From positions 32,001 through 96,000 of the forward strand of contig JAVKIP010000004.1 in NCBI GenBank assembly GCA_031459385.1: 64,000 nucleotides of DNA, in the 5' to 3' direction. Numbering within the stretch: position 1 is the first letter of the stretch; each line of letters starts with the position of its first letter. Origin of the DNA: Candidatus Fervidifonticultor secundus (GTDB lineage Bacteria; Sysuimicrobiota; Sysuimicrobiia; Sysuimicrobiales; Humicultoraceae). The translations under genes and the position numbers were made by a program. The notes under the pieces are model-generated. The model did no database searches. It was not told where the DNA came from and saw nothing but the letters and a program-made list of their open reading frames with translations. Below are positions 30,596 through 42,098 of this stretch, piece after piece.

Positions 30596-31270
30596 TCACG
30601 CGGGCGCAGGACGCACCCGCACGCGCTGCGCCAGCGAGCGGCCGAGGGCGCGGATCTGGTGCTGCACCTCTACGGTCACGGGGCCGTCCACGAGGCCGAT
30701 CTCGCGTACTTGCACCACCGCCCCGGGTAGCACACCGAGCGCTGCCAGGTGCGCCACGATCGCGCGGTCCTCCTCCGGGATGGCGGTCACGGTCGCGCGA
30801 CCCCAGACGGGCACCTGATCGAGCGTGACCAGGGCCTCGTCGTCCTCCGTGGTCTCACCGGGGATGGGCAACCCGTGCGGGCAGGTGGCCGGGTGCCCCA
30901 GGACCTCCGCCAGGCGGGTCTCGACCTCGGGACTGATCACGTGCTCGAGCTTGCACGCTTCCGCGTAGACGTCGGGCAGCTGCAGACGGAGCACGTCGGT
31001 GAGCAGGCGCTCGGCCAGCCGCAGCCGCCGGACGACCCGGCGGGCAGTGGCCAGGCCTGCATCGCTGAGGCTGTAGCCCGTCCCGGCGGTGGCCCGCACC
31101 AGGCCCTGGGCTTCCAGGCGCTTGAGCATCTCGTAGGCCGACGGGGGCGACACGCCCATGTACTCGGCCACCTTCGAGACGGTGACCGGCGGCGCGCCGA
31201 GCGAGACGGTGTAGACCGCCTTCAGGTACATCTCGATGCGCTCGGTGCGGGCGATGTCGTGCACCGTCAT
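30596..31270 (-). CDS. DtxR/IdeR/MntR family metal-dependent regulator with FeoA domain
   Basis: EMYLKAVY, RLAERLLTD, EACKLEHVIS, CPHGLPIP; ATGA overlap with the upstream fur-family gene. Confidence 0.9.
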   Translation of the reverse strand: MTVHDIARTERIEMYLKAVYTVSLGAPPVTVSKVAEYMGVSPPSAYEMLKRLEAQGLVRATAGTGYSLSDAGLATARRVVRRLRLAERLLTDVLRLQLPDVYAEACKLEHVISPEVETRLAEVLGHPATCPHGLPIPGETTEDDEALVTLDQVPVWGRATVTAIPEEDRAIVAHLAALGVLPGAVVQVREIGLVDGPVTVEVQHQIRALGRSLAQRVRVRPAPA

Positions 31271-31683
31271 CGACGGCACTCCCGGCAGATGCCACGGAAG
31301 ACTACCTGGAAGTCCTGCACCCAGTAGCCCTGGCGTTGGTCAGGCGCCAGATCGACAGGACCCAGCGGCACCTGCACGTCGGCGGCCCGACCGCAGCGAA
31401 CGCACACCAGGTGGTGATGAGGCCGGGGATTGGGGTCGTAGCGCGTGCTGCCCGTGCCCAGGTCCAGCGCCCGCACGGCGCCCATGGCCAGCAGTTCGTG
31501 CAGCACCGCGTAGACCGTGCGCAGCGACAGCGTGGGCATGATCTGCCGCGCCCGGCGGTAGAGGCCATCGGCCGTGGGGTGTTCCCGGTTGCCGTCCAGG
31601 AGCCGGCAGATCAACGCCCGCTGCGGCGTCAGCCGCCTGCGATGGGCCCGGAACTGAGCTGCCAGCGTGCTGGCCCGCTCCAT
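31267..31683 (-). CDS. Fur family regulator, PerR-like
   Basis: LTPQR, HPTA, SLRTVY, RYD...HHHLVCVRCG...D, CREC. Confidence 0.9.
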   Translation of the reverse strand: MERASTLAAQFRAHRRRLTPQRALICRLLDGNREHPTADGLYRRARQIMPTLSLRTVYAVLHELLAMGAVRALDLGTGSTRYDPNPRPHHHLVCVRCGRAADVQVPLGPVDLAPDQRQGYWVQDFQVVFRGICRECRR

Positions 31684-31790
31684 GTGGCACCTAACAACGA
31701 TTGTTGCGACGCGTCCCGGATCCCGCCAGCGCAGGCCGCGGGCTCGGTGCATCCCGCCCGTACCTGATACCGAATCGGGCGGAAAATGGA

Positions 31791-31821
31791 TTGACGAAAC
31801 TCAAGTATAAGGGTACCCTAA
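31791..31821 (+). promoter_or_regulatory. Sigma70 promoter of the iron ABC operon overlapped by a DtxR-family-like palindrome
   Basis: TTGACG-N17-TACCCT; TAAGGGTACCCTAA at 31808-31821. Confidence 0.6.
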
Positions 31822-31870
31822 CGACCGGTCCGGCGCAACCAGGGCCAGGTGCGGCGGAAGGGGAGGGACG

Positions 31871-32917
31871 ATGCGCAGCATGGTGGCAAACGCGGTCGTG
31901 AGACTGGCGACCGCCGCGGCCGTGGTACTCGCCGGCGGCGGTCCCGCGCAAGCGCAGGCATCCGTGCTGAACCTCTACAACGCCCGCCACTACGACACCG
32001 ACCAGGCGCTCTATGACGAGTTCACGCGCCAGACCGGTGTCCGCGTGAACCTGATCCAGGGCGATGCCGACCAGCTCATCGAGCGGATCAAGGCCGAAGG
32101 CGCGGGCAGCCCGGCCGACGTGCTGATCACGGTGGACGCCGGCCGGCTGTACCGGGCGCAGCAGGCCGGGCTCTGCCAGCGGATCGCCTCGCCGGTCCTC
32201 TCCGCCCGTCTCCCTGCCAGCCTGCGCGACCCCGAGGGCGCGTGGTACGGCTTCACCAAGCGCATGCGGGTGATCGCGTACGCACGGGAGCGGGTGGCGC
32301 GCGCAGAGCTCTCCACCTACGAGGACCTGGCCGACCCCCGCTGGCGCGGCCGCGTGCTCGTGCGCAGCTCGAGCCACGTCTACAACCAGTCGCTGGTGGG
32401 CGCCCTGGTGGCGTGGCACGGCGAGCCGTTCGTGGCGCGCTGGGCCCGCGGGATCGTGCAGAACTTCGCCCGGCCACCGCAGGGCGGGGACACCGACCAG
32501 CTCCTGGCGCTGGCCGCCGGCGAAGGGGACGTGGCGCTCGTGAACCACTACTACTACGTCCGGCTGCTGAACTCCCCGCGGCCCCATGAGCGCGCCGCCG
32601 CGGCAAAGGTTGGCCTGTTCTTCCCCAACCAGGGGCTGGAAGAGCGCGGGGTGCACGTGAACCTGAGCGGCGCCTGCGTCGTCGCCACGGCGGCGCACCG
32701 CGCCGCGGCCGTCGCGTTCCTCGAGTACCTAGCGTCCGACGGCGCGCAGGAGATCTTCGCCAGGGGGAACTTCGAGTTCCCGGCGGTCCGCGGCATCACC
32801 AATCCCTTGGCCGCCATCGCCCCCGCCCTGCTCAGGGAGGACCCGCTGAACGCCCGCATCTACGCGGCTAACGGCGGCAGGGCGCTGCAACTCATGGTCG
32901 GCGCCGGCTGGCGCTAG
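31871..32917 (+). CDS. Fe(3+) ABC transporter substrate-binding protein (FutA/FbpA-like)
   Basis: LYNARHYDTD, SPADVLITVDAGRL, RSSSHVYNQSL, GGDTDQ, NHYY, GVHVNLSG. Confidence 0.92.
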   Translation: MRSMVANAVVRLATAAAVVLAGGGPAQAQASVLNLYNARHYDTDQALYDEFTRQTGVRVNLIQGDADQLIERIKAEGAGSPADVLITVDAGRLYRAQQAGLCQRIASPVLSARLPASLRDPEGAWYGFTKRMRVIAYARERVARAELSTYEDLADPRWRGRVLVRSSSHVYNQSLVGALVAWHGEPFVARWARGIVQNFARPPQGGDTDQLLALAAGEGDVALVNHYYYVRLLNSPRPHERAAAAKVGLFFPNQGLEERGVHVNLSGACVVATAAHRAAAVAFLEYLASDGAQEIFARGNFEFPAVRGITNPLAAIAPALLREDPLNARIYAANGGRALQLMVGAGWR

Positions 32918-32931
32918 CAGGACGCCGCTCC

Positions 32932-34596
32932 GTGACGGGGCGGTCACTCTACCGGGTGCTGCCCGCGGCCGGCCTGGTCGTCGCCGGCGCGCTCTCGCTG
33001 CCCGTGCTGACCGTGGCGGGCAGTCTGCTCGTGCCGGCGGACGGCCCGTGGGTGGAGTTCGTCCGCCTGGTCCTGCCCCGCTACGTCGTCACCACCGTGT
33101 GGCTGGTGCTCGGGGTCGGTGCCGGGACACTTGTGATCGGCGTCGGGACGGCCTGGCTCGTCACGATGTGCCGTGTCCCCGGGCAGCGGATCTGGCAGTG
33201 GGCGCTCCTGCTGCCGATGGCGGTGCCCGCGTACCTGCTGGCCTACACCTACGCCGACCTGTTGCAGTACGCGGGGCCGGTGCAGACCGCGCTGCGGGCG
33301 TGGTTCGGGTGGAGCCGGGGCGACTACTGGTTTCCGCAGATCCGGTCCCTGGGCGGCGCCATCTTCGTCATGACCTGCGTCCTCTATCCGTATGTGTACA
33401 TCCTGGCCCGCGCGGCGTTCCTCGAGCAGTCGGGGGCCGTGCTGGAAGCCAGCCGCACACTGGGGCACTCGCCGTGGAGCACGTTCTGGCGTGTGGCGCT
33501 GCCGCTGGCGCGGCCGGGCATCGCCGCCGGGGTCGCCCTGGCCGGCATGGAGGTGCTCGCCGACTTCGGGACGGTCAAGCACTTCGAGCTCGATACCTTC
33601 GCCACGGGCATCTACGTGACGTGGTTCACCCTGGGCTCCCCGGTGGGCGCGGCTCGGCTGGCCGCCGGGCTCATGGTATTCGTGCTGGCCGTCATGAGCC
33701 TCGAGCGTGCCTCGCGCGGCAGCCGGCGCTTCCATCCGGCGGCGGCACCGCGGCGCGTGGCCGCGTTTCCGCTGCGCGGGTGGCGGGCTGGGGCGGCCGT
33801 CGCGGCCTGCCTGCTGCCGCTGCTGTGCGGCTTCGCGCTGCCGGCCGGGGCGCTGGCCCTGATGGCCGTGACCGCCGGCGACCCGCTGTTCGGGCCGGCG
33901 TTCCTGCGGCTCGCGGCCAACACGCTGCTGCTGGCGCTGCTGGCCGGGACGCTGGCGGTGGCCGTCGCCGCCCTGATCGCCTACGGCCTGCGCCTGGAGC
34001 CCTCTCCGCTCATGCGGGCGGCGGCGCGGGTGGCCGGCCTGGGCTACAGCGTGCCCGGCGCGGTGATCGCCGTGGGCGTCATGATCCCGTTCGGGTACGC
34101 CGACCGCGTCCTGGGCACCTGGCTGTACGCGGCGGCGGGCCGGCCGCCCGGGCTCGTCTTCAGCGGCACGATCTTCACGCTGGTGTACGCGTACCTCGTG
34201 CGCTTCCTGGCGGTCTCGTTGAACACGGTGGAAGCCGGGCTGGGGCGGATCAGACCCAGCATGGACGATGCGGCGCGGACGCTGGGCCATGGCCCCGGCA
34301 GCACACTGCTGCGCGTGCACGCGCCCCTCATGCGCGGCAGCCTGCTCGCCGCCGCGCTCCTGGTCGTGGTCGACCTGCTGAAGGAGCTCCCCGCCACCCT
34401 GATCCTGCGGCCCTTCAACTTCGACACGCTCGCGGTGCGGGTCTACCAGCTCGCGAGCGACGAGCGGCTGGCGGAGGCCTCCACGGCGGCGCTCGCGATC
34501 GTCGCCGTCGGCATCCTGCCGGTGCTCCTGCTGGACCGCACGATGGCGCGGGTGCGGGGGGCGCGCCACGACCCGCTGGAGGCCATGCGCCCGTGA
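32932..34596 (+). CDS. Fe(3+) ABC transporter permease (FutB/FbpB-like)
   Basis: LYPYVYILARAAF, ADFGTV, KELPATLILRPFNFDTLA, ASDERL. Confidence 0.92.
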   Translation: MTGRSLYRVLPAAGLVVAGALSLPVLTVAGSLLVPADGPWVEFVRLVLPRYVVTTVWLVLGVGAGTLVIGVGTAWLVTMCRVPGQRIWQWALLLPMAVPAYLLAYTYADLLQYAGPVQTALRAWFGWSRGDYWFPQIRSLGGAIFVMTCVLYPYVYILARAAFLEQSGAVLEASRTLGHSPWSTFWRVALPLARPGIAAGVALAGMEVLADFGTVKHFELDTFATGIYVTWFTLGSPVGAARLAAGLMVFVLAVMSLERASRGSRRFHPAAAPRRVAAFPLRGWRAGAAVAACLLPLLCGFALPAGALALMAVTAGDPLFGPAFLRLAANTLLLALLAGTLAVAVAALIAYGLRLEPSPLMRAAARVAGLGYSVPGAVIAVGVMIPFGYADRVLGTWLYAAAGRPPGLVFSGTIFTLVYAYLVRFLAVSLNTVEAGLGRIRPSMDDAARTLGHGPGSTLLRVHAPLMRGSLLAAALLVVVDLLKELPATLILRPFNFDTLAVRVYQLASDERLAEASTAALAIVAVGILPVLLLDRTMARVRGARHDPLEAMRP

Positions 34597-34685
34597 GGCC
34601 TGCCTTGTTGGGCGCACGGGGCTCTGGTACGCTGTCGGTGCAGATGCCGGCGGGTCGCGCCCCGCGCGGCCTACGTGAGCGGCAC

Positions 34686-35813
34686 ATGGCCATTGGCGAG
34701 GAGCGGGGGGCGCCCCCCGTCATCAGCATCCGCAGCGTGCTTCGGCGGTACGACCCCGCGGGACCGCCGGCCGTGGACCGCCTGTCGCTCGACGTGGCCC
34801 AGGGCGAGGTCCTCGCGCTGCTGGGTCCCTCCGGCAGCGGCAAGACCACGGTCCTGCGGCTCGTGGCCGGCTTCGAGCGGCCCGATGCGGGCGAAGTGTG
34901 GATCGCCGGGCGGCCGGTCGCAGGTGGCGGGGTGTGGGTTCCGCCCGAGGCGCGCAGCGTCGGCATGGTTTTCCAGGACTACGCGCTGTTCCCGCATCTG
35001 ACCGTCGAGGAAAACGTCGCCTTCGGCCTGCACTGTGTGCAGCGCGTGGAGCGCCCCCGGCGGACGCTCGAAGCGCTGGACCTGGTGGGGATGACGGCGT
35101 TCGCCGGCCGCTACCCCCACGAGCTGTCCGGGGGCCAGCAGCAGCGTGTCGCCCTGGCGCGGGCGCTGGCGCCGCAGCCGTTCGCGGTCCTGCTCGACGA
35201 GCCGTTCTCGAATCTCGACGCCGACCTGCGGGCGCAGGTGCGCGACGAGGTGCGCGGCATCCTGAAGCAGACCGGCACCAGCGCGATCTTCGTGACCCAC
35301 GACCAGCAGGAGGCCCTGGTGCTGGGCGACCGCGTCGGGGTGCTGCAGCAGGGTCGGCTCGAGCAGGTGGACACCCCGGAGCGCATCTTCCACATGCCCC
35401 GGACGCGCTTCGTCGCCCGGTTCTTGGGCCGGGCTGACTTCCTCCCCGCCAGGGTGACCGCACAGGGACTGCAGACCGAAGTCGGCGTTCTCCCTCAGCG
35501 CCCGCCACTCGGGAATGGCGACGACGTGGAGATCCTGGTGCGGCCGGACGACATCGCCATTGCGCCTGCGGCAGGCGGCGCCGGCATCGTCATCCGCCGC
35601 CTGTTCCAGGGCGGCGCAGTGCTGTATTGTATCGAGCTCCCCTCCGGCCGCCGCCTCCACAGCCTGCAGCCGCACACGGTGCACCTGGAGCCAGGCGCCC
35701 GCGTGGACGTGCGCCTGGCGCCGGGACACCCGCTGGCCTGCTTCCTCAACGGCCAGGCGGTTGCCGCTGTTACTGACGCCGCGCCCGGGGAACCTGCCCG
35801 GGCAGGCGACTGA
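34686..35813 (+). CDS. Fe(3+) ABC transporter ATP-binding protein (FutC/FbpC-like)
   Basis: GPSGSGKTT, VFQDYALFPHL, LSGGQQQRVALARAL, LLDEPFSNLD; C-terminal TOBE-like region. Confidence 0.92.
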   Translation: MAIGEERGAPPVISIRSVLRRYDPAGPPAVDRLSLDVAQGEVLALLGPSGSGKTTVLRLVAGFERPDAGEVWIAGRPVAGGGVWVPPEARSVGMVFQDYALFPHLTVEENVAFGLHCVQRVERPRRTLEALDLVGMTAFAGRYPHELSGGQQQRVALARALAPQPFAVLLDEPFSNLDADLRAQVRDEVRGILKQTGTSAIFVTHDQQEALVLGDRVGVLQQGRLEQVDTPERIFHMPRTRFVARFLGRADFLPARVTAQGLQTEVGVLPQRPPLGNGDDVEILVRPDDIAIAPAAGGAGIVIRRLFQGGAVLYCIELPSGRRLHSLQPHTVHLEPGARVDVRLAPGHPLACFLNGQAVAAVTDAAPGEPARAGD

Positions 35814-35820
35814 GCCGCGC

Positions 35821-36603
35821 ATGGCGGTCCGTCCCGCAGGATGGCTGCTGGACCTGGCGGAGGGTCCGGTGGACTACGGCGAGGCCTGGGCCCTGCAGCG
35901 CGCGCTGGTGGCCGCGCGGCAAGACGCGCGGGTGCCGGATCTCCTGATGCTGCTGGAGCACGCGCCGGTGGTCACGATCGGCCGCAGCGGGCGCCGGGGG
36001 AACGTGCTGATGCCGGCCGAGGAGCTGCGCCGGCGCGGTATCGCGCTGTACGAGGTCGAGCGCGGGGGCGACGTGACCTACCACGGACCCGGCCAGCTGG
36101 TCGGATACCCCGTTATGCACCTGCGCGCGCTGGGGGAGGACGTGGTACGGTACGTGCGGCTGCTGGAGGAGGCGGTCATCGTCACGCTGGCGTCGTTTGG
36201 CATCGCGGCGGGCCGCGAGCGCGGTTACCCCGGGGTCTGGGTCGGCGGCGCGAAGATCTGCGCGGTGGGTGTGGCGGTGAAACGAGCGGTCACCATGCAC
36301 GGCTTCGCCCTGAACGTCACCACGCCCCCCGAGGCGTTCGCCGCCATCAACCCGTGCGGCCTGGGCCGGCCGGTGACGTCCATGGCCGCGGTTCTGGGCC
36401 GCCCCGTCGCGCTGGCCGACGTGCGGCCGCGCTACGCGGCGGCGTTCTCCCGGGTCTTCCAGCTCCCGCTGCGGCCCGTATCCCTGCAGGCGCTGCCCGA
36501 CGAGGTGCGTGCCCGCGCCGCCTCCGAACGCGCTGCCCTGGCAGCGGCCACCCTGATGGCGGCCGCCGGGCACCCCGCCGGCCGGGCGCCGGCGCCTGCG
36601 TAG
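35821..36603 (+). CDS. lipB: Lipoyl(octanoyl) transferase LipB
   Basis: LLEHAPVVTIG, RGGDVTYHGPGQLVGYP, KICAVG, HGFALNV, INPCG. Confidence 0.92.
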   Translation: MAVRPAGWLLDLAEGPVDYGEAWALQRALVAARQDARVPDLLMLLEHAPVVTIGRSGRRGNVLMPAEELRRRGIALYEVERGGDVTYHGPGQLVGYPVMHLRALGEDVVRYVRLLEEAVIVTLASFGIAAGRERGYPGVWVGGAKICAVGVAVKRAVTMHGFALNVTTPPEAFAAINPCGLGRPVTSMAAVLGRPVALADVRPRYAAAFSRVFQLPLRPVSLQALPDEVRARAASERAALAAATLMAAAGHPAGRAPAPA

Positions 36604-36614
36604 AGGCAGAGACG

Positions 36615-36890
36615 ATGGCCACCGTGCTCATCCCCGCGCCCCTGCGACGCCTGACCGCGGGGCAGGCGCGCATCGTGGTGCCCGCCGGATCGGTGGCGGA
36701 GCTGCTGGACCGGCTCGACGCCAGGTATCCGGGCATGCGCGCCTACCTGCTCGACGACGCCGGCACCCTCCGCGCCTACGTGAACATCTTCGTCAACAGC
36801 GCCGAGGTCCGCAGCCTGGCCGGCCTGCAGACACCGCTCGCCGACGGCGACGAGGTAGCGATCCTGCCGGCCATGGCCGGCGGCGCGTGA
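36615..36890 (+). CDS. MoaD/ThiS family sulfur carrier (CysO-like), C-terminus GG-A
   Basis: IPAPLRRLT...YVNIFVN...DGDEVAILPAMAGGA. Confidence 0.9.
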   Translation: MATVLIPAPLRRLTAGQARIVVPAGSVAELLDRLDARYPGMRAYLLDDAGTLRAYVNIFVNSAEVRSLAGLQTPLADGDEVAILPAMAGGA

Positions 36891-37735
36891 GCGAGCGCTC
36901 CGCCCGCGAGCCCCGCGGGCTGACCGCGCCGGTGCGGCTGCAGCTGCCCGACCTGCGGATCGTGCCGTCCGCGGCCCTGCGCCTGCACGAGGAGTGCGAT
37001 CCGGAGCGCGTCGCGCGCCTGGCCCGGCGCCTGGCGGCCGAAGGCGTGCTGCGCAACCCCCCTCTGGTCGCGCCGCTGGGTGACGACGCATACGTCGTCC
37101 TGGACGGCGCCAATCGCGTCACGGCCCTCCAGCAGAGCGGCGTGCCCCATCAGGTCGTGCAGGTCGTGGACTACGACGATCCCGCCGTCGTGCTCGACGT
37201 GTGGGCGCACCTGCTCTCCGACGATGCGGCGGCGGTGCGCGCGGCGGGCCCCTGGGAGACGCTGCCCACAGACGAGCTGCGCGCCGGACTCGCCGCCGGC
37301 CGCCTGGTCTGCGGGCTGCTGACGCGGGTCGGAGCGTTCGGCCTGCCCGGCCGGGCCGACCTGGCCGAGCGCGTGCGCAGCATGGCCGCGGTGGTGGCGA
37401 CATACAAGGGGCGCCAGACGATCTACCGCGTCCAGCCGGCCGACCTGGACGCGCTGGCGCGCGAGTACGGCCGGGCCGACGCCCTGGTGATCTTCCCGCG
37501 CCTGTCGAAGGCGGACGTCCGTGCCATTGCTCGGCTCCCCCAGAAGCTGCCGACGGGCATCAGCCGGCACGTCGTCCCGCTGCGCGCGCTGCGCGTGAAC
37601 ACGGACCTGGCGCTGCTGCGAGGCCCCGAGCCCACGGCGGTGAAGCAGGCACGGCTCGATGAGGCGATCCGGTCGCGGCTCCTCGAGCATCGCGTGCGCC
37701 ACTACCCCGAGCCCACCGTCCTCTACGACGAGTGA
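36887..37735 (+). CDS. ParB/Srx-fold protein, SbnI/SerK-like putative free L-serine kinase
   Basis: LRLHEECDPERV...GVLRNPPLV...YVVLDGANR; C-terminal KLPTGISRHVV; resembles the SbnI LHE...PILV...DGVHR pattern. Confidence 0.7.
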   Translation: MSERSAREPRGLTAPVRLQLPDLRIVPSAALRLHEECDPERVARLARRLAAEGVLRNPPLVAPLGDDAYVVLDGANRVTALQQSGVPHQVVQVVDYDDPAVVLDVWAHLLSDDAAAVRAAGPWETLPTDELRAGLAAGRLVCGLLTRVGAFGLPGRADLAERVRSMAAVVATYKGRQTIYRVQPADLDALAREYGRADALVIFPRLSKADVRAIARLPQKLPTGISRHVVPLRALRVNTDLALLRGPEPTAVKQARLDEAIRSRLLEHRVRHYPEPTVLYDE

Positions 37736-38730
37736 TGGCGTACCGGTTTCCGCCGTCCGCCCCGGCGCCCATCGCCGGCGACGTCCTGGGTCTCATCGGG
37801 AACACGCCCCTGGTCCGGCTCTCGCGGGTCGCCCCGCTGCGCGAAGGCGTCGAGTTGTACGCGAAGCTGGAGGCGCAGAACCCGGGCGGATCGGTCAAGG
37901 ACCGTCCGGTGCTGCGCATCGTGGAGGACGCCGAGCGCGACGGGCGGCTGCGGCCAGGCCAGGTCATCCTGGACTCCACCAGCGGCAACGCCGGCATCGC
38001 CTACGCCATGATCGGCGCCGCCAAGGGTTACCGCGTCACCCTCGTCGTGCCGGGCAATGCCAGCGACGAGCGCAAGGGCATCCTCCGGGCGTACGGGGCC
38101 GACCTGGTGCTCTCCGACCCCCTGGAAGGGTCAGACGGCGCCATCTTGGTGGCCCGGCGCATGGCGGCGGAGGCGCCGGAGCGGTACGCCTACCTCGACC
38201 AGTACAGCAACCCCAGCAACTGGCGTGCTCACTACGACACTACGGGCCCGGAGATCGTGCGCCAGACCCACGGCCGCATCACCCACTTCGTGGCCGGGGT
38301 GGGCACCAGCGGCACGGTCATCGGGGTCGGCCGCCGCCTGCGCGAGACGAACCCCGCAGTCGAGATCGTGGCCGTCGAGCCCGACGACGCGTTCCACGGC
38401 ATCGAAGGCCTCAAGCACCTGCCCACGGCCATCGTGCCGGGCATCTACGACCCGTCGGTACCGCACCGGACGCTGCGCGTGGCCACCGACGACGCCTACG
38501 CGTTCACTCGCCGGCTGGCCGTGACCGAGGGGCTCTTCGTGGGACCCTCGGCAGGCGCCGCGCTGGCCGCGGCGCTGGCGGTAGCGCGCGACCTGCGAGA
38601 GGGCGTCATCGTCGCCATCTTTCCGGACGCCGGCGACCGGTACCTGTCCACCAGCGTCTGGCGCCAGGTCGCGCGCGCCGGCCCGCCGGGGCCGGGGCCC
38701 GGAGGCCCGCCCGGCGCAACCGGTATATAA
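37735..38730 (+). CDS. cysM: PLP-dependent cysteine synthase (CysM-like, probable O-phosphoserine sulfhydrylase)
   Basis: IGNTPLV, AKLEAQNPGGSVKDR, STSGNAG, GVGTSGT, GDRYLST. Confidence 0.88.
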   Translation: MAYRFPPSAPAPIAGDVLGLIGNTPLVRLSRVAPLREGVELYAKLEAQNPGGSVKDRPVLRIVEDAERDGRLRPGQVILDSTSGNAGIAYAMIGAAKGYRVTLVVPGNASDERKGILRAYGADLVLSDPLEGSDGAILVARRMAAEAPERYAYLDQYSNPSNWRAHYDTTGPEIVRQTHGRITHFVAGVGTSGTVIGVGRRLRETNPAVEIVAVEPDDAFHGIEGLKHLPTAIVPGIYDPSVPHRTLRVATDDAYAFTRRLAVTEGLFVGPSAGAALAAALAVARDLREGVIVAIFPDAGDRYLSTSVWRQVARAGPPGPGPGGPPGATGI

Positions 38731-38738
38731 TAAACTGA

Positions 38739-39152
38739 ATGGCCCTGATCCTGGAGCGGGCGCAGGTGGACGCCATGATCGAGCACGCGCGCGCCGAGCA
38801 CCCCAACGAGTGTTGTGGCCTGCTGGCGGGCCTCGGCGACCGCGTCGTGCGCGTCTACCGCGGCCGCAACGCCGATCGGAGCCCCTACACCTACCGGCTG
38901 GATCCCCAGGAGCAACTGCGCTTTTTCCGGGAGATCGACGACGCGGGGCTGGAGCTGGTCGGGATCTACCACTCGCACACCCAGTCGGCCGCCTACCCCT
39001 CGCGTACCGACATCGCCAAGGCGTACTATCCTGACGCGGCGTACGTCATCCTCTCGATCCTCGACCCCGCGGCGCCGGCCGCGGACGTGGAGATCCGGGC
39101 TTTCCGGATCCGTGACGGCGTGGTCACCGAAGAGGAGCTGGTGATCGCATGA
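38739..39152 (+). CDS. Mov34/MPN/JAMM metallopeptidase (Mec-like CysO-cysteine peptidase)
   Basis: PNECCGLL, IYHSHT...YPSRTD JAMM motif. Confidence 0.9.
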   Translation: MALILERAQVDAMIEHARAEHPNECCGLLAGLGDRVVRVYRGRNADRSPYTYRLDPQEQLRFFREIDDAGLELVGIYHSHTQSAAYPSRTDIAKAYYPDAAYVILSILDPAAPAADVEIRAFRIRDGVVTEEELVIA

Positions 39153-39628
39153 AGGTCTCGACGCGGGCCGAGTACGGGTTGCGCGCCCTGCTGGACCTGG
39201 TGGCGCACTACGGCCAGGGGCCGGTGCACAGCCGCCAGATCGCCGAGCGCCAGGGCCTGCCCGAGCCCTACCTCAACCAGCTGATGGCCGCGCTGCGGCG
39301 CGCCGGGCTGGTCAGCAGCAAGCGCGGCCCGCACGGCGGGCATGTGCTCTCGAAACCGCCGGCGGCGATCACGCTGCGCGAGGCCTTCGAGGTGCTGGAG
39401 GGTACCACCGCGCCATGGTGGTGCGTCGAGGTCGACGATCCCGACTGCGCGTTCGTGGACGGGTGCGGGCTGCGTCCCGTCTGGCGCGCCGTGCAGGCCG
39501 CCGCCGACGGCGTCCTCAACCGCCTCACGCTGGCCGATCTGCGCCCCGCGCCTGCCCCGCTGGTGCCGGTCGGGGTCGGGGAGCGGTATCCCGTGCGCGG
39601 GCGCCGCCCTGCCGCACGGCGGCGGTAG
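39149..39628 (+). CDS. Rrf2 family transcriptional regulator (IscR/CymR-like, three Cys)
   Basis: MKVSTRAEYGLRAL, SKRGPHGG, CVEVDDPDCAFVDGC. Confidence 0.9.
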   Translation: MKVSTRAEYGLRALLDLVAHYGQGPVHSRQIAERQGLPEPYLNQLMAALRRAGLVSSKRGPHGGHVLSKPPAAITLREAFEVLEGTTAPWWCVEVDDPDCAFVDGCGLRPVWRAVQAAADGVLNRLTLADLRPAPAPLVPVGVGERYPVRGRRPAARRR

Positions 39629-39661: not shown

Positions 39662-39676
39662 ATGGAGGAAGACGCC

Positions 39677-40372
39677 ATGGGTGTGTGCGCCGTGAACGCC
39701 GGTCGGCCGTCTACCGCGGTCTCCCAGGAAGACCGCGCCCGGTTCGAGACCCTGGTCAACGAGCACCTCGACAGCCTCTACGGCAGCGCGCTGCGCCTGA
39801 CCCGCAACCGCGCCGCAGCCGAGGACCTGGTCCAGGAGACGTTCCTCAAGGCCTGGCGGTCGTTCCACACGTTCCAGCCCGGCACGAACGCCCGCGCCTG
39901 GCTGTACAAGATCCTGATGAACGCCTACATCGACAGCTACCGCAAGGCCGCGCGCGAGCCGGAGCTGATCGACCAGGAAGACGTCGGCGACTTCTATCTG
40001 TACGCCAAGGCGCAGGAGAGCGACGAGTACCGGCGCGCTGGCGACCCCGAGGAGACGCTGCTGGCCCGGATCATGGACGCCGACGTCAAGGCGGCGCTGG
40101 AGCAGGTGCCCGAGCCGTTCCGCATGGCGGTGATCCTGGCCGACCTGGAGGAGTTCTCGTACCGGGAGATCGCCGAGATCCTGGGCATCCCCATCGGGAC
40201 GGTCATGTCCCGCCTCTACCGCGGGCGCCGGCACCTGCAGCGCCTCCTGTGGGACTACGCGAAGCGTGCCGGTTACGTCAACGGAGATACCGCCGCGCCC
40301 GGTGGCGGCGCGACGGCGGGGCACAGGCCCCCGGGGGCGCCGCCCAAACCGCGCACCGCAGGCGACCGATGA
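39677..40372 (+). CDS. ECF sigma factor, SigR/SigH-like
   Basis: [64 protein letters not shown]. Confidence 0.92.
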
Positions 40373-40614
40373 CCGAGATCGACTGTCGGGAGTTGCTCCG
40401 CCAGCTCTGGATGTACCTCGACGGCGAAGCCGACGCGCCGGTGGGCCAGGACCTGCAGCGCCACATCGCCCGGTGCCTGCCGTGCCGGCAGCACGCCGAG
40501 TTCGAGCGCCGGCTGCGCGAGATCATCCAATACAAGTGCCGCGGCGAGCGCGCGCCCGACCCCCTCCGGCAGGAACTGGCCCGCCTCCTGCGCATCTCGA
40601 TCCAGAGAGGCTAG
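40369..40614 (+). CDS. Zinc-binding anti-sigma factor, RsrA/RshA-like
   Basis: [14 protein letters not shown]...HIARCLPC (HxxxCxxC)...KCRGERAP; no TM; ATGA overlap with the sigma gene. Confidence 0.88.
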
Positions 40615-40719: not shown

Positions 40720-41103
40720 ATGCTGACCAAGGACGTCATCCGCAGCGACGGTGCGCCGCTTCCCATCGGCCCGTACTCACAGGCGATCCGGGCCGGCGGC
40801 GTGCTCTACCTCTCGGGGCAGGTCCCGCTCGACCCGGCCACCGGGCAGCTGGTCGGTGGCGACATCAAGACCCAGACCCGGCGCGTGCTGGACAATCTGC
40901 GCGCGGTGCTGGAGGCCGCCGGGTCGTCGCTGGACCGCGTGGTGAAGACCACGGTCTACCTCCGAGACCTGAACGACTTCGGGGCCATGAACGAGGAGTA
41001 CGCCTCGTACTTCCGCGAGGTGCCCCCCGCCCGCACCACGATCCAGGCCGCCCGCCTGCCGCGCGACGCGCTGGTCATGATCGAGTGCATCGCGCTGGGG
41101 TAG
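40720..41103 (+). CDS. ridA: RidA family enamine/imine deaminase
   Basis: [44 protein letters not shown]. Confidence 0.92.
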
Positions 41104-41117
41104 CCCGGTGCCCCCGG

Positions 41118-42098
41118 CTACAGGTCGACCCGGGTGCCCACGCCCCGGGCCACCGCCTTGCGGTACACGAGGGTCGCCGTGGCCACGTCCTCCACGGCGA
41201 CGCCCACCGACTTGAAGAGCGTGACCTGCCCGGGGTGCGTCCGGCCTGGCTTCGTCCCGCCGATCACCTCGCCGAGTTCGTCCGCGACCTGCGCGCGGGT
41301 GATGCGACCTTCCTGCAGCGGCACCAGGATGTCGCCACACTCAGTGAAGATGGCGTCGCGCGAGTCCACCACGACGCGCGCGCGGGCAACCGTCTCGGTG
41401 TCGAGCTCGCGGGCGCCCGGCGCGTGCGAGCCGACGGCGTTGATGTGGCAGCCCGGGCCGAACCACTCCCAGCGGACGATGGGCTGCGCGGCGGTCGTGG
41501 CCAGGACCACCAGGTCGGCGCCCCGGACGGCGGCTTCCTCCGAGTCGACGACGTCGATGGGCACGCCCAAGCGCGGCTCCATCTCCCGCTGGAACGCCTC
41601 GGCCTTCGCACGGGTCCGGTTGTAGATCCGGCAGCGGGTGACCTGAGCGACCTCCCGCATCGCCCACAGGTGGCTCTGCCCCTGGACCCCGGCGCCCAGG
41701 ATGCCGAGGACCTTGGGCCCGGGCGTGGCCAAGTAGCGCGTCGCCACGCCGGAGGCCGCGGCCGTCCGCACGGCGGTGAGGTAGGCGCCGTCCATGATCG
41801 CCAGCACCTGCCCCGTCTCCGGGTCGTTGACGACCACCACGGCGAGGATCGTCGGCAGGCCGCGCTGCGGGTTGCGCGCGTACACCGTCACGATCTTGCT
41901 GCCGAGCGCGTCGCTCCGGCTGAGGTAGGCCGGCATGGACAGCATGGCGCCGGCGTGGGGGGCCACGGTGGTCGTGCTGCGCACCGGCATCACCGCCTGG
42001 CCGGCCGAGAGCTCGGCCAGGGCCTGCGCACACGCGTCGATCGCCTCGCGCATGTCCAGCAGATCGCGGACCTGGGCCGCGGAGAGGATCAGAGGCAT
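41118..42098 (-). CDS. Ornithine cyclodeaminase / alanine dehydrogenase-like (mu-crystallin family)
   Basis: MPAYL, KIVTV, LTAVRTAAASGVAT, GAGVQG, HINAVGS, LFKSVGVAVED. Confidence 0.92.
   Translation of the reverse strand: MPLILSAAQVRDLLDMREAIDACAQALAELSAGQAVMPVRSTTTVAPHAGAMLSMPAYLSRSDALGSKIVTVYARNPQRGLPTILAVVVVNDPETGQVLAIMDGAYLTAVRTAAASGVATRYLATPGPKVLGILGAGVQGQSHLWAMREVAQVTRCRIYNRTRAKAEAFQREMEPRLGVPIDVVDSEEAAVRGADLVVLATTAAQPIVRWEWFGPGCHINAVGSHAPGARELDTETVARARVVVDSRDAIFTECGDILVPLQEGRITRAQVADELGEVIGGTKPGRTHPGQVTLFKSVGVAVEDVATATLVYRKAVARGVGTRVDL

Follow-up and report, generated by a model that had tools for sequence, protein, structure and literature searches.

How a bacterium without a recognisable cysE gene activates serine for cysteine synthesis is the question raised by a five-gene operon of Candidatus Fervidifonticultor secundus. 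The operon occupies positions 36,615 to 39,628 of a 64,000-nucleotide stretch, hereafter the window, that corresponds to positions 32,001 to 96,000 of contig JAVKIP010000004.1 (assembly GCA_031459385.1; 97.6% complete, 5.5% contaminated). It encodes a sulfur carrier, a kinase-like protein, a CysM-type cysteine synthase, a JAMM peptidase and an Rrf2-type regulator. On the basis of sequence comparison we consider it fairly probable that the kinase makes O-phosphoserine, that CysM condenses this with the thiocarboxylated carrier and that the JAMM enzyme frees cysteine. Each of these parts is already known and only the combination of the kinase with the carrier-based cysteine route is new. No literature linking a free-serine kinase to the mec-cysO-cysM-MoeZ route was found, subscription journals and supplements being outside the scope of that search.

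All five reading frames are on the plus strand with a coding-type GC content at third codon positions (0.91-0.95), and they form the tightly coupled operon described in an earlier, sequence-only reading, with which coordinates, overlaps and families agree. The first gene (36615..36890) encodes a MoaD/CysO-like ubiquitin-fold carrier of 91 residues ending in AMAGG-A, which matches Pfam ThiS (56.7 bits), NCBIfam moaD_arch over its cut-off and also SAMP1, and is 43% identical to CysO from the mec-cysO-cysM operon of Tsukamurella. Its stop is overlapped by the GTG start of the gene for the putative free-serine kinase (36887..37735; 282 residues), and the kinase stop by the ATG of cysM (37735..38730), which encodes a pyridoxal phosphate (PLP)-dependent enzyme of 331 residues that scores 396.6 bits against the TIGR01138 cysM cut-off of 394.2. 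An 8 bp gap separates cysM from the gene of the Mec-like JAMM (M67) metallopeptidase (38739..39152; 137 residues; Prok-JAB 94.6 bits, over cut-off), whose stop overlaps the ATG of rrf2 (39149..39628; 159 residues; Pfam Rrf2).

The second protein probably phosphorylates free L-serine to O-phosphoserine. Its chain aligns full length with SbnI and SerK, over a ParB/Srx N-terminal fold followed by the second alpha/beta domain of these kinases. The motifs pointed out before, LHE (H34-E35), NPPLV (N57-P58-P59) and DGANR (D73-G74-A75-N76-R77), are indeed present, and the apparent lack of a helix-turn-helix domain was confirmed: no Pfam family, helix-turn-helix and ParB included, matched at E<=0.1. 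In the alignment E35 corresponds to SbnI E20 and SerK E30, and D73 to SbnI D58 and SerK D69. Both residues are invariant in 255 of 255 homologs; we take the Glu of the HE motif and the Asp of DGxxR to be catalytic. The serine pocket is conserved as well (W106 in 254, T/S226 in 255, R227 in 250, and H or F228 in 246 of the 255). Fold and motif residues hence support the proposed assignment as an SbnI/SerK-type kinase. Identity to the tested enzymes is 20-25%, and the equivalog scores given below place the protein in a subfamily separate from SbnI and SerK. The kinase-like family comprises 1066 clusters at 50% identity (E<=0.001), distant SbnI/SerK-like ones included.

Searches that were positive in the control genomes detected cysE in one of 61 genomes of the order and not in the source genome. 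The predicted bypass of CysE is supported, in that 59 of 60 relatives also lack the gene. SerA was identified in 30 of the 61 genomes, and in six of 33 in the source genome's own family. A second search, with the catalytic part of SerA as query, returned orthologues at 59-88% identity and elsewhere only paralogues at 51% or less, among which a short SerA may have gone unrecognised. In 13 of 13 fetched serA-less loci (among L132-L144) the aminotransferase gene that otherwise precedes serA abuts serS, which shows that serA was lost rather than missed through an assembly gap. There are 21 genomes that have the kinase with adjacent cysM and no SerA, ten of them with a completeness of 90% or more; two of these ten are 7-8% contaminated. 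With neither cysE nor SerA, and with GlyA present in 55 of 61 genomes, the simplest source of activated serine is the kinase running forward. The claim that SerA and SerC are bypassed is thus supported, for SerA, in the serA-less relatives and fails for the source genome, which has a full-length serA behind a class-V aminotransferase gene.

The kinase gene was found in 59 of the 61 genomes, the source genome included. In 50 of these 59, cysM lies within 200 bp, in 42 a CysO-type carrier gene within 3.2 kb, in 41 both, and in 21 a cystathionine beta-synthase (CBS) gene within 2 kb; several misses are due to contig ends. The long form of the locus reads lipB - cystathionine gamma-lyase/synthase - carrier - CBS - kinase - cysM - mec - rrf2 - sigH - rsrA, of which the window holds a short form. 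This order is conserved across the taxon, as the earlier reading had anticipated, and so the arrangement is not due to chance. CysM is the sole CysK/CysM/CBS-family gene product of the source genome and is 47% identical to the Tsukamurella enzyme. Its Lys227 occupies the position of Arg210 in E. coli CysM and of Arg220 in the mycobacterial type, the latter by way of the Tsukamurella enzyme as placed on the mycobacterial structure. All 48 locus copies that were aligned, some of them duplicates, have K or R there (one further, mis-extracted row was dropped). A Lys at the equivalent site has been described for CysK of Thermococcus kodakarensis (PMC5120207). The basic residue expected at the phosphate-binding position is thus present and consistent with phosphoserine, though not diagnostic alone. 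Phylogenetic trees firmly unite the CysMs of the operon with an enzyme of Aliarcobacter (100/97 and 100/98) whose gene itself adjoins M67 and MoaD genes. Gene context suggests that CysM likely uses carrier thiocarboxylate, and that it forms carrier-Cys from O-phosphoserine by the carrier route seems a somewhat better than even proposition.

The carrier itself was read incompletely before, since its end as encoded is GG-Ala rather than a free Gly-Gly (GG), and the terminal Ala is likely removed before activation. Residues follow GG in 30 of 32 distinct locus copies, in three of which the chain runs on into CBS, and only two copies end at GG; in eight of 120 listed database homologs the carrier continues into the kinase. 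JAMM enzymes that trim such tails or fusions have been described (PMC5925218, PMC8832034). The JAMM motif of Mec is intact (E...H-S/T-H-x7-S-x2-D, here H-S-H-x7-S-x2-D at residues 78-91), and Mec is the only strong JAB match of the genome, with one more at cut-off on contig C2. Two other carriers are blocked in a similar way, and Mec is likely their maturase too. Carrier 2, on contig C23, ends in GG-AAAW and follows thrB and a thrC-like gene; this block (C23:56324-58800, minus strand, L042:6325-8794; also in L105, L106 and L108), in which the thrC-like product has a zinc-ribbon N-terminus, looks like the phosphohomoserine/carrier homocysteine route (MetM/MetO) as far as sequence tells, and parallels the architecture of the block of serine kinase, CysM and CysO. 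The third carrier is a linear MoaD-MoaE fusion with an internal GG (C58:142092-142877, minus strand; L043:6093-6878). The fusion occurs in five of five tested genomes of genus g4, and its likely processing by Mec would explain why g4 retains mec while having lost cysO and cysM from the locus.

Activation would depend on a ThiF-rhodanese MoeZ-type protein, a role assigned from its sequence. Its gene lies on contig C58 beside lipA and 2-oxoacid dehydrogenase genes and is the only over-cut-off ThiF match of the genome, none being found in the window, as the earlier reading had rightly remarked of the activating enzyme. Across the order, MoeZ-type genes are present in 58 of 61 genomes and lie within 5-12 kb of the kinase in five genomes of family f2. 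That the pathway is self-contained, as had been supposed, is therefore not supported: MoeZ is encoded on a different contig, and there is no cysH in the genome. The source genome has three two-domain rhodaneses besides MoeZ, and two relatives carry one between cysM and mec; a persulfide relay from sulfide or thiosulfate may supply the sulfur. The donor is described as open for the mycobacterial route as well (PMC3227635).

In the scheme that we propose, free L-serine, likely from GlyA or uptake, would be phosphorylated by the kinase with ATP rather than ADP as the more likely donor, because the kinase is nearer to SbnI; the nucleotide specificity of this fold has been stated to be unpredictable (PMC12704722). 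Mec would, by precedent, trim the terminal Ala of the carrier to expose GG, which MoeZ would adenylate and thiocarboxylate from a persulfide donor. CysM would convert phosphoserine to aminoacrylate, Lys227 being the likely phosphate ligand, and then to carrier-Cys, from which Mec would release cysteine and regenerate the GG end. The kinase would in this way replace CysE throughout the order, and SerA/SerC where serA has been lost.

A number of observations weigh against this scheme. On the kinase side, Asn76 replaces the His found in DGxHR of SbnI (His61) and SerK (among 255 homologs the position is N in 206, T in 42, S in four and H in three), Gly224 stands where SerK has Lys221, although SbnI also has Gly there, and the protein scores far under both equivalog cut-offs (SbnI, NF033589, 54.1 of 350 bits; SerK, NF053625, 35.6 of 380 bits). 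The source genome can itself make phosphoserine through serA, which lies in a class-V aminotransferase - serA - serS cluster (C1:115778-119905; L044:5779-9906). CysM scores 279 bits to enterobacterial CysM against 232 to the mycobacterial enzyme, has a short unconserved Pro/Gly tail in place of the mycobacterial C-terminal extension, and is only weakly placed as sister to the mycobacterial type (87/88, then 76/70), a clade that unites it with E. coli CysM not being rejected (approximately unbiased test, p 0.23). The extension of actinobacterial CysM has a role in donor selectivity. Arg210 is believed to be a thiosulfate ligand in the E. coli enzyme (PMC9547175), so Lys227 does not discriminate between phosphoserine and thiosulfate use. 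The locus of genus g8 (three genomes) retains kinase-cysM-mec and has no carrier gene, and that of genus g4 (eight genomes) retains kinase-mec; g4 has no cysM orthologue and, in seven of eight genomes, no CysO-type match. Outside the order, 14 of 38 genome loci, mostly of Eisenbacteria, showed no cysteine gene closer than 6 kb to the kinase. Finally, cysH is present in six of 61 genomes, and no net cysteine would be gained if the sulfur came from a cysteine desulfurase.

The CysM score, the missing extension and the ambiguous tree position would also fit a CysM that takes free sulfide or thiosulfate, as do enterobacterial CysM or the T. kodakarensis enzyme, with the kinase supplying phosphoserine and with carrier and Mec as co-regulated sulfur-traffic genes for other routes (homocysteine, molybdopterin). 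Mec has other likely substrates, g8 dropped cysO from the locus and kept the rest, and sqr has been reported in 109 genomes of the phylum (PMC11604079), so that sulfide is encountered. We nevertheless judge this unlikely: in 42 of 59 genomes the kinase still has a CysO-type carrier gene no more than 3.2 kb away despite the second, thrC-linked carrier elsewhere, the closest outside CysM lies beside M67 and MoaD genes too, and g8 genomes keep a related carrier elsewhere, with an exact GG end.

An improbable explanation is that the kinase mainly serves serine metabolism, either from serine to 3-phosphoglycerate via reversed SerC/SerA or as a SerB substitute running backwards, with CysM feeding secondary. 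No SerB scored over cut-off in any of the 61 genomes while SerA occurs in 30, g4 retains the kinase in the absence of cysM and cysO, SerK serves both cysteine synthesis and serine assimilation in T. kodakarensis (PMC5120207), and SerBK (DUF1015) has been proposed as a SerB substitute running backwards (PMC13759103). Further, among 150 listed distant homologs the 16 longest were scanned, of which nine carry a SerA-like dehydrogenase domain, one a Mec domain and six nothing. The nine (P0206, P0219, P0226, P0228, P0251, P0207, P0208, P0232, P0256) are 2-hydroxyacid dehydrogenase-kinase fusions with the kinase part second and the motifs DGATR and TRF; in P0127 a kinase-family protein is fused behind the Mec domain. 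However, the kinase is retained next to cysM in 21 genomes that lack SerA, where neither the assimilation nor the SerB role is possible by this route. Genus g4 lacks SerA too, and a diverged CysK-like PLP enzyme encoded away from the kinase (L099:4955-6079, L100, L101, L102), whose C-terminal tail is rich in Cys, is its candidate replacement of CysM and could use phosphoserine. Where SerA is present, the kinase may have a second role in serine metabolism.

It is very improbable that the substrate of the kinase is a different small hydroxyl compound, such as homoserine or threonine, or that the PLP enzyme yields some other beta-substituted compound, for instance cysteate. The His-to-Asn change, the low identity to tested enzymes and a weak score of CysM with the model for cysteate synthase (210 of 600 bits) would allow it, but a separate homoserine kinase, ThrB, is encoded beside the thrC-like gene and second carrier, the pocket residues W106 and S/T226-R227-H228 are conserved, and CysM is over the cysM cut-off, no second member of its family being encoded in this genome, which has no cysE. 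Databases name the homologs 'ParB N-terminal domain', SbnI binds DNA and heme too (PMC7139808), one SerK homolog is reported as a nuclease and one SerK-like protein bound CTP, but ParB structures match the small N-terminal fold only and DGANR stands in place of a GxRR box, which makes a DNA-binding ParB-like protein, nuclease or heme-sensing operon regulator scarcely credible.

The kinase was previously called dedicated to this pathway; this is not supported, since g4 keeps it without cysO and cysM, in Anaerolineae it neighbours CBS, and fusions to SerA-like domains occur elsewhere. All informative partners of the kinase handle serine or phosphoserine. In 12 of 38 genome loci outside the order (Anaerolineae and kin; L012-L015, L017, L031-L037) a CBS-domain cystathionine beta-synthase gene directly precedes the kinase, cysM, carrier and mec being absent and gamma-lyase often near; this CBS is possibly phosphoserine-using. 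Distant homologs on Bacillus plasmids adjoin sbnA-sbnB (one record examined). In genus g4, second, broken operon copies occur in which carrier and kinase are frameshifted or truncated and gamma-lyase and CBS are intact (G032:C141, L103; G028:C293, L104). Copies of gamma-lyase - (carrier) - CBS - kinase are preceded, at a distance of 235-450 bp, by a reading frame with P-R-x-C-I-C-P (L103:2802, L104:8163, L079:5959, L080:3719), which also precedes the rhodanese inserted after cysM; none was found in the window. In three g24 genomes (L083, L085, L094) the carrier tail after GG is R-R-C-L-C-R, like this leader.

The operon does not stand isolated. An 11 bp gap separates it from lipB (octanoyltransferase; 35821..36603, plus strand; TIGR00214 over cut-off, and synteny), a conserved neighbour with no pathway role shown that is probably co-transcribed. 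An iron-type ATP-binding cassette transporter leads into lipB and then the operon (gaps of 7 and 11 bp), divergent from a minus-strand DtxR/MntR-like repressor gene with FeoA domain and a Fur-like gene (30596-35813). With lipB beside the operon and lipA beside MoeZ, both lipoate genes neighbour sulfur-carrier genes. The Rrf2 protein has CymR as its best NCBIfam equivalog (96.8 bits, under the cut-off of 195), and its Cys92/Cys100/Cys106 pattern is presumably that of Fe-S-binding Rrf2 proteins. Directly after rrf2, as in relatives, follow on the plus strand a SigH/SigR-like extracytoplasmic function sigma factor (39662..40372; TIGR02947 212.5 bits, under the cut-off of 251.55, and synteny) and an RsrA-like zinc-finger anti-sigma factor (40369..40614; TIGR03988 69.7 bits, cut-off 62.5). 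These regulators likely tie operon expression to thiol or Fe-S status. Just downstream is a RidA/YjgF-family gene (40720-41103), kept after rsrA in closer relatives; RidA/YjgF detoxifies aminoacrylate, the CysM intermediate. An ornithine cyclodeaminase/mu-crystallin gene (41121-42098) lies on the opposite strand.

A wider model is tentative. The kinase might be the main phosphoserine source for cysteine across the order and the sole one in serA-deleted lineages, with a single Mec gating all protein-borne sulfur traffic by uncapping three GG-blocked carriers (CysO-Ala or CysO-enzyme polyproteins, MetO-like, MoaD-MoaE) and releasing homocysteine as well as cysteine, with Rrf2 and the SigH/RsrA-like pair in control, and with members of the same kinase family in Anaerolineae feeding a phosphoserine-using CBS. 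The free-serine kinases tested so far come from a few archaea (cysteine synthesis, serine assimilation) and staphylococcal siderophore synthesis. If our reading is true, a large unannotated family now mislabelled 'ParB' or 'hypothetical' has a core bacterial role, the cysteine gap of a widespread uncultured order without cysE is closed, and a route from serine via phosphoserine to carrier-Cys is to be added to pathway annotation.

Among known systems, the mycobacterial/actinobacterial mec-cysO-cysM and MoeZ route, with its protein-bound thiocarboxylate (PMC3227635, PMC9547175), has the same carrier, CysM-type and JAMM genes in an operon, a basic residue at the Arg220 position and, as here, a ThiF-rhodanese MoeZ encoded elsewhere in the genome. 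Here, in contrast, the operon includes the kinase-like gene and has a different gene order, the carrier ends in GG-Ala instead of GG, CysM belongs to another subfamily without the extension, and there is no parallel cysE or cysK route. Operon class 4c of Iyer, Burroughs and Aravind 2006 (ThiS/MoaD, E1-rhodanese, JAB and cysteine synthase), then described as uncharacterized in several phyla (PMC1779556), shares the four core genes. Here the E1 is unlinked, Rrf2 and the ECF sigma/anti-sigma pair follow, and the ParB-fold gene goes unmentioned in the class 4c passages of that paper.

SbnI of Staphylococcus, an ATP-dependent L-serine kinase feeding SbnA (PDB 5UJD, 5UJE, 6NR6), is about 23% identical to our protein, which falls under its equivalog cut-off, has Asn76 for His61 and is partnered by a cysteine synthase instead of SbnA. 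SerK of T. kodakarensis is ADP-dependent (PDB 5X0B; PMC5120207), its gene is not operonic, and its Lys221 and His71/His72 are not kept in the bacterial protein, whose gene shares an operon with cysM and whose pathway likely uses carrier-borne sulfur rather than free sulfide; the same source states that clear-cut SerK homologs are absent from bacteria. The MetM/MetO/Mec/MoeZ homocysteine route of Streptomyces (PMC13759103) uses the same logic of a phospho-amino acid and a carrier thiocarboxylate with shared Mec and MoeZ, with homoserine and a GHMP kinase there and serine and a ParB/Srx-fold kinase here.

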